Below are positions 45,419 through 51,534 of a stretch of DNA of 64,000 nt, one piece after another. The stretch is taken from contig JAFSSP010000020.1 of assembly GCA_017450945.1 (NCBI GenBank), positions 32,954-96,953 of the forward strand, read 5' to 3'. The notes under the pieces are model-generated. The model searched no databases. It was not told where the DNA came from and saw only the letters and a program-made list of their open reading frames with translations. Source of the DNA: Clostridia bacterium. GTDB taxonomy: Bacteria; Bacillota; Clostridia; Oscillospirales; CAG-272. Position numbers and translations under genes: made by a program. Every line of letters starts with the position of its first letter. Within the stretch, counting starts at the first letter, position 1.

Positions 45419-45448
45419 TCAAATAGTATTTTGATGGAGGAGACCTCT

Positions 45449-45883
45449 GTGAAACACGTGGAAATTTACACCGACGGCGCCTGCCGGGGCAATCCGGGCA
45501 AAGGCGGCTGGGGCGCGATTCTGGTTTACGGAAACAAGGAAAAAGAATTGTCCGGCGGCGAAGCCTTGACCACCAACAACCGCATGGAGCTGACCTCGGT
45601 GATCGAAGCGCTCTCGGCCTTAAAGGAGCCCTGTCGCGTCACTCTGACGTCCGACTCCAAATACGTCGTAGACGCCATCGAAAAAGGCTGGGCGCGTTCC
45701 TGGCAATCGAACGGCTGGAAAAAGGCCGACCGAAAGCCTGCGCTCAACCCCGATCTTTGGGAAAAACTTCTTGCCTTGCTCGACAAGCACGAGGTCACCT
45801 TCGTTTGGGTCAAAGGGCACGACGGACATCCCTACAACGAGCGCTGTGATCAGCTTGCAACAACCTTTGCGGACAGTCTTTGA
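45449..45883 (+). CDS. rnhA: Ribonuclease HI
   Basis: [22 protein letters not shown]...TNNRMEL...[15 protein letters not shown]. The GTG at 45449 lies 6 nt after GGAGGAG. ATG 45434 is too close to the predicted transcription start and has no RBS. Confidence 0.9.
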
Positions 45884-45908
45884 TATTTCCTTTTCACCAT
45901 AGAAAAAG

Positions 45909-46177
45909 GCTGAAACGCCTCATCCGACTTCGCTGCGCTCAGCCACCTTCCCCCACCGGGGAAGGCTCAAAAAGCGAATGCCGAAATTAGAATCGTCATA
46001 CGATTGAAAGCAAAAAATATTACTCACCATAATAGAACTTGAGCTACACAAAAAGTTTTAAGCATTCTATAAAATTTTGAAATTCGCCCCAATTGCCCAC
46101 GATGAATGGCAACCACCCAAAGGCCTTCCCCAGTAGGGGAAGGTGGCACGGCGAAGCCGTGACGGATGAGGTGCCCA
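45909..46177. mobile_element. MITE-like element: inverted pair of two-hairpin modules around a 156-bp AT-rich core, flanked by a 10-bp direct repeat
   Basis: The left module (45918-45966) and the reverse complement of the right module (46123-46171) are identical at 39 of 49 positions in an ungapped hand alignment. ATAGAAAAAG occurs at 45899-45908 and 46178-46187. No coding capacity. Confidence 0.45.
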
Positions 46178-46181
46178 ATAG

Positions 46182-46214
46182 AAAAAGCCGAAAGCAATTT
46201 GCTTTCGGCTTTTT
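46182..46214. terminator. Bidirectional terminator (livF and rnhA side)
   Basis: AAAAA-GCCGAAAGC-aattt-GCTTTCGGC-TTTTT. Confidence 0.8.
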
Positions 46215-46218
46215 GGTT

Positions 46219-46929
46219 TTAACCGCCAAGGTAGGCTTTGCGGATGCTGTCGTCCTCGAGCAGTTCCTTACCGGTTCCGGTCTTGACCATCTTACCGATC
46301 TCCAAGACGTAAGCACGATTTGCGATCGAGAGCGCCTTCTTTGCGTTCTGCTCGACGAGCAGAACGGTGGTTCCCTCTTCGTTGACCTTTTTGATCATAT
46401 CGAAAATGATGTTGACGAAAAGCGGAGAGAGTCCCATGCTGGGTTCATCCATCAGCAGTAGCTTCGGACGAGACATGAGCGCTCTTGTGGTGGCAAGCAT
46501 TTGCTGTTCGCCGCCCGAAAGGGTTCCTGCAATCTGCTTGGAGCGCTCTTTGAGGATCGGGAAACGCTCGTACATCTCTTCCATCGAGGCGTTGATCTCG
46601 GCCTTGCTCTTGCGCGTGTATGCGCCGAGGCGAAGGTTTTCCGCAACCGTCAGCTCCTGGAAAATGCGGCGGCCTTCCGGCACCTGAGCCACGCCCATGT
46701 AGGTCAGCTTGTGCGCCGGGGTGTTCGTGATATCCTTATCCATAAAGGTAACTTTGCCGCCCGCCTTCGGGATCAGGTTGCAGATCGAGTGCATGATGGT
46801 GGTTTTTCCTGCGCCGTTGGCGCCGATGAGGGCCACCACTTCTCCCTCGTTGACTTCAAAGGAGACGCCGCGAATGGCTTGAATGAGCCCGTAACGGACC
46901 TGCAGATCTTCCACTGTTAAAAGTGCCAT
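46219..46929 (-). CDS. livF: Branched-chain amino acid ABC transporter ATP-binding protein LivF
   Basis: GANGAGKTT, LSGGEQQML and LLMDEPSMGLSP motifs. Last gene of the liv-type operon. Confidence 0.92.
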   Translation of the reverse strand: MALLTVEDLQVRYGLIQAIRGVSFEVNEGEVVALIGANGAGKTTIMHSICNLIPKAGGKVTFMDKDITNTPAHKLTYMGVAQVPEGRRIFQELTVAENLRLGAYTRKSKAEINASMEEMYERFPILKERSKQIAGTLSGGEQQMLATTRALMSRPKLLLMDEPSMGLSPLFVNIIFDMIKKVNEEGTTVLLVEQNAKKALSIANRAYVLEIGKMVKTGTGKELLEDDSIRKAYLGG

Positions 46930-51373: not shown

Positions 51374-51480
51374 TGGTACGATTTCACAGAATTTTCGTTG
51401 AAAACAAAACAGTTCTGGTATTTTTGCATAAAAATGCATAGAAAAAAGGCAATATGCAGAAGAAACGGGTTGTATTGAAA

Positions 51481-51534
51481 GCCTTCCTCAGAGAGGAAGG
51501 TGGCATTTTCCCCCGGAAAATGACGAAAGGAGCC
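51481..51534 (-). repeat. Third copy of the two-hairpin repeat module
   Basis: Minus strand reads CTCCTTTCGTCA-TTTTCC-ggg-GGAAAA-TGCCACCTTCCTC-tct-GAGGAAGGC. Same architecture as 45918-45966 and 46123-46171, with compensatory stem changes. Confidence 0.6.

Follow-up and report, generated by a model that had tools for sequence, protein, structure and literature searches.

Enterobacterial repetitive extragenic palindromic (REP) and bacterial interspersed mosaic (BIME) elements stabilise or attenuate mRNA 3' ends. Copies of miniature inverted-repeat transposable elements (MITEs), such as Correia of Neisseria and RUP of pneumococcus, share an interior, and at their borders a duplication of fixed length abuts the terminal repeats. 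REPINs, which are REP doublets forming hairpins, were described by Bertels & Rainey in 2011, and the insertion of DNA into such doublets has also been described (PMC3116915). The CGTC-tagged REPs of Di Nocera et al. (2013) carry a CGTC (or TGTC/CCTC) tag, a CCA tail, a loop of 4-5 nt and stems of 8-9 bp with A/T pairs in the first two positions; they are without a dedicated transposase and form dimers, and that study reports none from Firmicutes (PMC3733652). Here, we compare with these systems an element found in a 64,000-nt stretch of a Clostridia bacterium genome (contig JAFSSP010000020.1), referred to below as the window. The element lies between two convergent genes, rnhA, encoding RNase HI, and livF, which encodes an ABC ATPase and comes last among the ATPase genes in an operon for a liv-type transporter of branched-chain amino acids. 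An original prediction made from the letters of the sequence described it as a MITE/BIME-like insertion with inverted arms, an AT-rich core and a flanking direct repeat, or alternatively as a small RNA gene. We propose that the feature is probably a tail-to-tail, REPIN/BIME-like doublet of a widespread, non-autonomous two-hairpin repeat that was gained in this lineage beside the rnhA/livF terminator, and whose centre consists of orphan DNA.

The arms as units of a two-hairpin repeat

The inverted arms were recovered where they had been predicted, at 45918-45966 and 46123-46171, as two stretches of 49 nt each that are complementary at 39 of 49 positions (80%) and have 156 nt between them. Each arm corresponds to one REP-like unit (Table 1) and contains a perfect hairpin, CCTTCCCC-N4-GGGGAAGG, in addition to a second, imperfect one. 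A single long hairpin is predicted for the whole element on either strand, at -127 kcal/mol on the plus strand, where the composite spans about 250 nt, and at -143 kcal/mol on the minus strand, with z-scores of about -11 and -10, respectively. Given that the arm pattern was expected 0.00 times in shuffles and that the fold of the whole element reached z = -11, chance is excluded as an explanation of the arms. Both arms were recognized by R1, a covariance model built from an alignment of 93 distinct units, with 56.5 bits for the left arm (E = 2.7e-13) and 65.9 bits for the right arm (E = 9e-16). A hammerhead-like reading of the head variant CTGATGAGG was rejected on inspection, as the order of elements does not fit.

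The family represented by these arms is built on a unit of about 50 nt, which comprises an (A/C)CCTCATCCG head, a variable self-complementary hairpin (hairpin 1), a GCCA tail and a second hairpin (hairpin 2) consisting of CCTTCCCC, a loop of 3-5 nt and GGGGAAGGC, or GCCACCTTCCCC-N3-5-GGGGAAGGC. Used as a pattern, the terminal hairpin of the arm matched at least 120 stretches of viral contigs, and the pattern of the left-arm subtype, CCTCATCCGAC.TCGCTGCGCTC.GCCACCTTCCCC, matched at least 119 stretches of species-representative genomes. Among the matches listed, all came from uncultured ruminant or animal-gut metagenome-assembled genomes (MAGs), some of them with dozens of matches, labelled as Clostridia, Eubacteriales, Oscillospiraceae, Acutalibacteraceae, Aristaeellaceae and also Selenomonadaceae/Schwartzia. 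A regular-expression census found 488 units in the 1.95 Mb of loci that were fetched, a density that is biased upward because the loci were chosen for containing a unit; in some MAGs one contig carries several. The window itself has three units, the third of which, found by R1, is a diverged single copy reading CTCCTTTCG-TCATTTTCCGGGGGAAAATG-CCACCTTCCTC-TCTG-AGGAAGGC (Table 1).

The two-hairpin structure is maintained across copies. In the 93-unit alignment 90.5% of cells pair, compared to 76.8% in shuffles, and the covariation score of 0.298, compared to 0.108, was reached by 0 of 500 shuffles; slid controls paired at most 60.5% of cells. Both sides change in five of the six pairs of hairpin 1, and in 15 units the outer pair of hairpin 2 is swapped from C-G to G-C. 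A literature search by exact sequence strings and keywords returned no description of the repeat family, which appears to be undescribed so far. Strings of the form GGGGAAGGTGGC...GGATGAGG presumably correspond to spurious small open reading frames (ORFs) in Oscillospiraceae genomes, and the head, (C)ACCTCATCC, is one that we take to resemble the anti-Shine-Dalgarno 3' end of 16S rRNA.

The unit is also carried by MAGs of Negativicutes, namely Selenomonadaceae S28M_St_metabat_123 (L160, L166, L167 and L171-L174) and Schwartzia (L173 and L200), where it shares up to 36 identical nt with copies in Clostridia and has a flavour of its own, with GGTC/GGTT tails and AT-rich spacers of about 20 nt in tandem arrays. 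Unless these bins are contaminated, such sharing would imply a spread of the unit across bacterial classes.

Units are found singly, in tandem, head-to-head or tail-to-tail, with single units being the commonest arrangement. The census loci contained 24 tail-to-tail pairs, 35 head-to-head pairs and 69 tandem neighbours, the spacers in tandem arrays measuring mostly 11-22 nt or about 50 nt. The pair in the window is tail-to-tail, and in the 23 other pairs of this kind the spacer measures 6-50 nt in 22 cases and 187 nt in the remaining one. Its particular combination of a left ACYTCGCTGCGCTCRG unit and a right CGTC-ACGGC-TTC-GCCGT unit recurs in a viral contig (L089), with a centre of 9 nt, and in the MAG RUG103 (L154), with a centre of 27-29 nt. 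In a three-way alignment with these loci the arms are about 90-100% identical, positions 46140-46172 of the right arm are identical to the right arms of both, and the extra DNA of the window is confined to the centre. The recurrence of this heterodimer in L089 and L154 identifies the doublet as a recurrent entity of about 107-125 bp, on a par with a REPIN or a minimal BIME. Short-read Logan contigs of the same species end at 45953 (L132/L133) and start at 46144 (L004/L005), i.e., at hairpin 2 of each arm, and such breaks are expected at a multi-copy or palindromic repeat.

Orientation was scored by the presence of a Shine-Dalgarno sequence, an ATG and an ORF, since naive ORF calling gave too much noise in GC-rich sequence and was set aside. 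In viral loci (L006-L125) a gene start of this kind lies within 60 nt downstream of the tail for 51 of 250 units, compared to 6 in the opposite direction, a bias that is absent in MAG loci (4 versus 6). The 51 to 6 ratio argues that units in viral contigs are transcribed in one orientation. In the window, rnhA and livF each read into one unit in sense orientation. A second, unrelated GC-rich repeat (GTCATCCTGAGCGAAGTCGAAGGATC, with the variant GTCATTCTGAGCGGAGCGAAGCGGAGTCGAAGAATCC) accompanies the units in viral contigs, at 6535-6570 of L089, downstream of the unit in L099 and at about 3450-3490 of L050.

The insertion site and the orphan centre

The rnhA and livF genes share one bidirectional intrinsic terminator, located between the right arm and livF (Table 1), for which a 15-bp hairpin is predicted in folds of either strand, with T5 following the hairpin on the plus strand. 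The rnhA transcript would now have to cross about 290 nt before reaching it. In relatives with the same gene order (L126-L128, L130, L131 and L255-L257), the rnhA-livF spacer is 49-88 bp long and consists of a single bidirectional terminator with no unit and no AT-rich DNA. RnhA identity to these relatives is 93-94% (L126, L130, L131, L256 and L257), 90% (L255) or 89% (L127 and L128). The short, unit-free spacers of the relatives indicate that the element was gained in the lineage of the window, and in this respect the original prediction of an insertion holds: the region is extra DNA. That prediction also pointed to an empty site with a single copy of the flanking 10-mer, ATAGAAAAAG, which was found in none of the RnhA/LivF relatives looked up; no precise empty site can be defined because the terminators of the relatives are not homologous to that of the window. 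Likewise, no intermediate states are seen because the conspecific contigs all match the window at 99.99-100% identity. In the closest sister species, TTCATT(T/C)C octamers form a short tandem array that lies after the rnhA stop and before the terminator (L126 2936-3000, with equivalents in L130, L131, L256 and L257) and is absent from the window.

The 10-mer occurs in exactly two copies in the window, outside both arms, at 45899 and 46178, and the right copy does form the A-tract of the terminator, running into its hairpin, both as predicted. On the minus strand the left copy reads as a T-tract after a weak 5-bp hairpin. The copies do not abut the arms, as 9 and 6 non-palindromic nt lie between them. 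The word is over-represented about 4-fold in this genome (20 matches with at most one mismatch, compared to 4.9 expected), and words of this type are evidently common here, given a 15/16 match to CCATCGAAAAAGGCTG within rnhA, at about 45675-45690. A near copy, ATAGAAAAAA at 51438-51447, adjoins the third unit, and among equally spaced window pairs about 0.35% share a substring of 10 nt or more. In L127, one of the 89% relatives, ATAGAA directly precedes the terminator and TTTTTGGTT follows it, and because the window shares both around its own terminator, the right-hand 10-mer looks ancestral.

A genuine MITE, with a 269-bp unit (45909-46177) whose arms serve as terminal inverted repeats and which transposed into ATAGAAAAAG immediately before the terminator and duplicated it, would account for an exact 10-nt direct repeat on both sides (p of about 0.001 by shuffling), for the ancestral appearance of the right copy, with ATAGAA at the same place in L127, and for the existence of relatives without the element. 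We nevertheless regard a MITE as unlikely. The direct repeat stands 9 and 6 nt away from the arms; the two arms belong to different subtypes of a generic repeat and are not private termini; and nothing comparable flanks any of the 23 other tail-to-tail pairs, in which the longest direct repeat is 8 nt and most are 3-5 nt. In addition, the 10-mer is a 4-fold over-represented word with a 15/16 copy inside rnhA, and no second copy of the core was found in the window, in the roughly 2 Mb of loci or in the viral, phage, plasmid and metagenome collections. The original prediction read the 10-mer as a target-site duplication, and neither its offset from the arms nor the flanks of the other pairs fits that pattern. 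The 10-mer is thus genuine though weak evidence that a duplication took place at this particular site and is not a property of the element; it is most likely a terminator-flank word that was duplicated in the rearrangement, or else an A-rich word that is common here and recurs by coincidence. The predicted classification stands in its BIME-like half, whereas the new MITE is not supported, as the arms are two subtypes of an abundant unit of about 50 nt and no repeat of the core was found in the collections searched.

A different origin would be two independent single-unit insertions flanking AT-rich DNA that was already present or arrived separately, which would make the palindromic appearance incidental. 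The prevalence of single units in the family, the different subtypes of the two arms and the fast evolution of intergenic sequence at this site, where the terminators of the relatives are not homologous, all agree with such a history. It is improbable in our view, because the same pair of left and right subtypes recurs tail-to-tail as a compact doublet in L089 and L154, and because the relatives have no AT-rich DNA at this site.

Between the arms, the AT-rich 156-bp core of the original prediction was confirmed, with a GC content of 0.31-0.42 compared to about 0.5-0.6 in the flanking genes, as was its lack of a credible ORF, none being seen in the ORF list. Its final 10 nt or so (CCACCCAAAG) correspond to the 3' extension that the right unit normally has. 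The predicted fold of the core is more stable than that of shuffles (z = -3.4), and the arms of an inner inverted repeat pair with each other in the minimum free energy structure. If the 114-bp segment bounded by this repeat (Table 1) is left out, the centre is reduced to 42 nt ending in CCAAAG, like ordinary doublets and inside the 6-50-nt range of the family; this segment is plausibly a nested insertion inside the core. In total, the extra AT-rich DNA in the centre of the window doublet amounts to about 130-147 bp and is foreign to the repeat family.

The core was found nowhere else in the collections searched. By blastn it has no second copy in the rest of the 64-kb window or in about 2 Mb of unit-containing loci; a search of 50,697 phage records returned matches to the arms only, and one of PLSDB plasmids returned chance matches only (E >= 0.04). 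An exact 22-mer from the core had 0 matches in metagenome contigs and an exact 24-mer had 0 in viral contigs. A gapped pattern of arm, 142-173 nt and arm matched 0 viral contigs and two metagenome loci (L253 and L254), neither of them homologous to the core. In these two loci (L253 1745-2000 and L254 2995-3245), both of them tail-to-tail doublets, the centre is occupied by hairpin 2 in 4-5 tandem copies and by an AT-rich spacer of about 27 nt, an arrangement that suggests a possible slippage-type expansion inside doublets. From such comparisons of sequence, the doublet centre appears to be unstable.

The predicted promoter-like hexamers, TTGAAA-18-CATAAT, are present at 46004-46033 on the plus strand, where they match 10 of 12 positions and lack a TG motif. 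As a sigma-70-type promoter they could start a transcript of about 175 nt running through the right arm to the terminator, so that the element would be a small RNA or promoter cassette with its arms as insulators. The match itself, the better-than-shuffled fold of the core and a terminator downstream on the same strand are all compatible with such a cassette. However, the region contains 2 promoter-like sites compared to 0.7 +/- 0.9 in shuffles, which is no enrichment, and AT-rich DNA readily yields matches of this kind; the hexamers as they stand are not evidence of function. A scan of the region against Rfam 15 at E <= 10 gave no real family match, with only the sub-threshold chance matches MIR7533 (22.5 bits, gathering threshold 230) and Lambda_thermo (17.8 bits, gathering threshold 50), and ARAGORN found no tRNA or tmRNA in it. 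Because the core is without a homologue in the collections searched, there is no support from conservation or covariation, and the available copies are all clonal. The small RNA gene of the original prediction thus comes down to one promoter-like hexamer pair in AT-rich DNA, and we consider it very unlikely.

Proposed origin of the doublet and the DUF559 association

For the doublet that we favour, we propose the possibility that it arrived as one piece, via some trans-acting mechanism or through recombination with phage or other DNA, and that at a later time its centre was filled or enlarged with orphan DNA, perhaps including the 114-bp segment with its own 15-nt inverted repeat. By analogy with enterobacterial REP/BIME elements and REPINs (PMC3116915, PMC3733652), the units may be copied by a trans-acting enzyme. 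The same analogy would have the hairpins form in RNA or single-stranded DNA, and either the hairpins or the 250-nt composite could block exonucleases at the 3' end of an RNA or serve there as an insulator. Several points weigh against our proposal. No mobilising enzyme was found for the repeat, and an RNA-level role would be carried over from enterobacterial REPs. A substring of 10 nt or more is shared by the two flanks in 0.1% of composition-preserving shuffles (p of about 0.001), and the direct repeat is not predicted by a doublet gained in this way. The search for the core in the source genome covered the 64-kb window, and further copies may exist outside it. As the contigs of the same species are all identical, the order of events, with the doublet first and its centre later, is one that we infer.

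No transposase was found in the element, in line with its original description as non-autonomous repeat DNA. In about 2 Mb of sequence, tblastn with IS200/IS608 TnpA queries, a weak test, found no gene for a REP-associated tyrosine transposase (RAYT) or other IS200-like protein beside the units, RAYTs being divergent; the sole IS200-like match was partial, unrelated and located at the edge of L152. Genes of about 120 aa with a DUF559 domain (PF04480, E of about 1e-30) lie directly between or beside units in seven of the nine DUF559-containing MAG loci (Table 1), and their GC content, at 0.32-0.54, is lower than the 0.48-0.62 of the host contigs. It is these genes, and not Y1 transposase genes, that are found between units. 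At four loci the DUF559 gene is bracketed by a minus-strand unit on the left and plus-strand units on the right, whichever strand the gene itself is on. Judged by gene order, this is a REPtron-like layout with an endonuclease-fold gene in the place of the RAYT. The exact left-arm subtype of the window occurs in L152, followed by AAAAAGCGA and an AT-rich DUF559 gene, from which came the idea that the core is a decayed DUF559 cassette; this candidate was rejected, as tblastn and Smith-Waterman scores do not exceed those of shuffles.

A more far-reaching and rather doubtful hypothesis is that the arms belong to an undescribed two-hairpin superfamily common, with almost identical sequence, to Clostridia, Negativicutes and phages, which would be transcribed in one set orientation and propagated in association with small DUF559 genes of low GC content (Vsr/restriction-endonuclease fold), bracketed by units that face outward as in a REPtron, and not with a RAYT, and that the window doublet holds foreign DNA, possibly a promoter or small-RNA module. 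If true, the window doublet would show how doublets capture and move cargo.

Table 1. Features of the rnhA-livF region in the window and unit-associated DUF559 loci in MAGs
Feature	Position	Strand	Remarks
rnhA	45434-45883	+	RNase HI
Left copy of ATAGAAAAAG	45899-45908	+	9 nt outside left arm
Left arm, one REP-like unit	45916-45967	+	ACYTCGCTGCGCTCRG subtype
Left arm, head	45918-26	+	CCTCATCCG
Left arm, hairpin 1	45928-42	+	imperfect; followed by tail GCCA
Left arm, hairpin 2	45946-65	+
AT-rich orphan core	45967-46122	none	GC about 0.36
Inner inverted repeat of core	45974-88 / 46073-87		GCGAATGCCGAAATT / AATTTTGAAATTCGC, 12/15; bounds 114-bp segment 45974-46087
Right arm, one REP-like unit	46122-46173	-	CGTC-ACGGC(-TTC-GCCGT) subtype
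Right arm, hairpin 2	46124-43	-
Right arm, hairpin 1	46147-61	-
Right arm, head	46163-71	-	CGGATGAGG (plus-strand reading)
Right copy of ATAGAAAAAG	46178-46187	+	A-tract and 5' flank of terminator
Bidirectional intrinsic terminator	46182-46214	both	perfect 16+16-nt palindrome with A-tract and T-tract
livF	46219-46929	-	ABC ATPase
Third, diverged single unit	51480-51532	-	R1 22.8 bits, E = 2e-4; intergenic, near liv operon
DUF559 locus	L145 946-1578
DUF559 locus	L152 2798-3319
DUF559 locus	L166 3647-4308
DUF559 locus	L168 4703-5256
DUF559 locus	L204 626-1401
DUF559 locus	L219 6446-6989
DUF559 locus	L224 8-423

Comparison with MITEs, REPINs and REP/BIME elements

Like a MITE, the element is small, non-coding and intergenic, with inverted ends and promoter-like sequence, and this copy has a flanking direct repeat. 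It differs in that its interior is unique and the direct repeat both lies 9 and 6 nt away from the arms and is not seen at other pairs; no shared interior was found in the window, the loci of about 2 Mb or the collections searched, and no recurrent abutting duplication among the 23 other tail-to-tail pairs, whose longest flank repeats measure 3-8 nt. The result for this locus is mostly corrective, as a supposed new transposon turns out to belong to a family of interspersed palindromic repeats and to have a one-off filling. As a locus it represents a repeat insertion of the ordinary kind, in which the orphan centre is the single feature left unexplained.

The resemblance to CGTC-tagged REPs lies in the right arm, where hairpin 1 has the form CGTC-stem-loop-stem-(G)CCA, and in the presence of the CCA tail (GCCACC). 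In contrast, the left arm carries CGAC, and among the tag tetranucleotides of the family CGTC occurs in 18-25% of units (22%, or 107 of 486, family-wide), CGGC, CGAC and CGCC being commoner. The stems are 4-8 bp long and GC-rich with at most one basal A-T pair, the loops measure 3-4 nt, and the unit has an extra conserved head and a second hairpin. By neither tag nor stem do the units examined here fall within the CGTC REP superfamily.

With REPINs, the doublet shares an inverted pair of short palindromic repeats with a spacer, predicted to form a single long hairpin, and the family shares an extragenic, multi-copy distribution in which singlets, doublets and clusters occur side by side. REPINs, however, are defined together with a cognate single-copy RAYT, and the search beside the units here, a weak test, found none; with no link to a RAYT found, the doublet cannot be filed as a REPIN sensu stricto. 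The unit also differs in comprising two hairpins and a conserved 9-nt head, and its family is common to bacterial classes and phages and apparently not vertically inherited. The spacer of the window doublet, 156 nt of AT-rich orphan sequence, is far outside the norm of the family as well.

The wider significance lies in the family. It is extremely common in Firmicutes MAGs from gut and rumen and in phage contigs, it fragments short-read metagenome assemblies, and it probably gives rise to many spurious small ORFs. A proper description would improve both the annotation and the assembly of gut MAGs. If the agent that copies the unit were identified, with DUF559 endonucleases as one candidate, the REP/REPIN picture would reach beyond Proteobacteria.

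Among the described systems, REP/BIME elements offer a comparison that holds for both the unit and its arrangement. There is no sequence relation and no GTAG tag, the unit here is about 50 nt long with two hairpins, and, unlike REP/BIME elements, it is also abundant in phage genomes, where copies lie in sense orientation just upstream of genes. Yet both kinds of element are GC-rich imperfect palindromes located in 3' untranslated or intergenic DNA, often between convergent genes, and both occur in alternating orientation as distinct subtypes that combine into heterodimers. Here, as in REP/BIME elements, a multi-copy palindrome of about 50 nt keeps its stem-loop across copies and is arranged in alternating subtypes.

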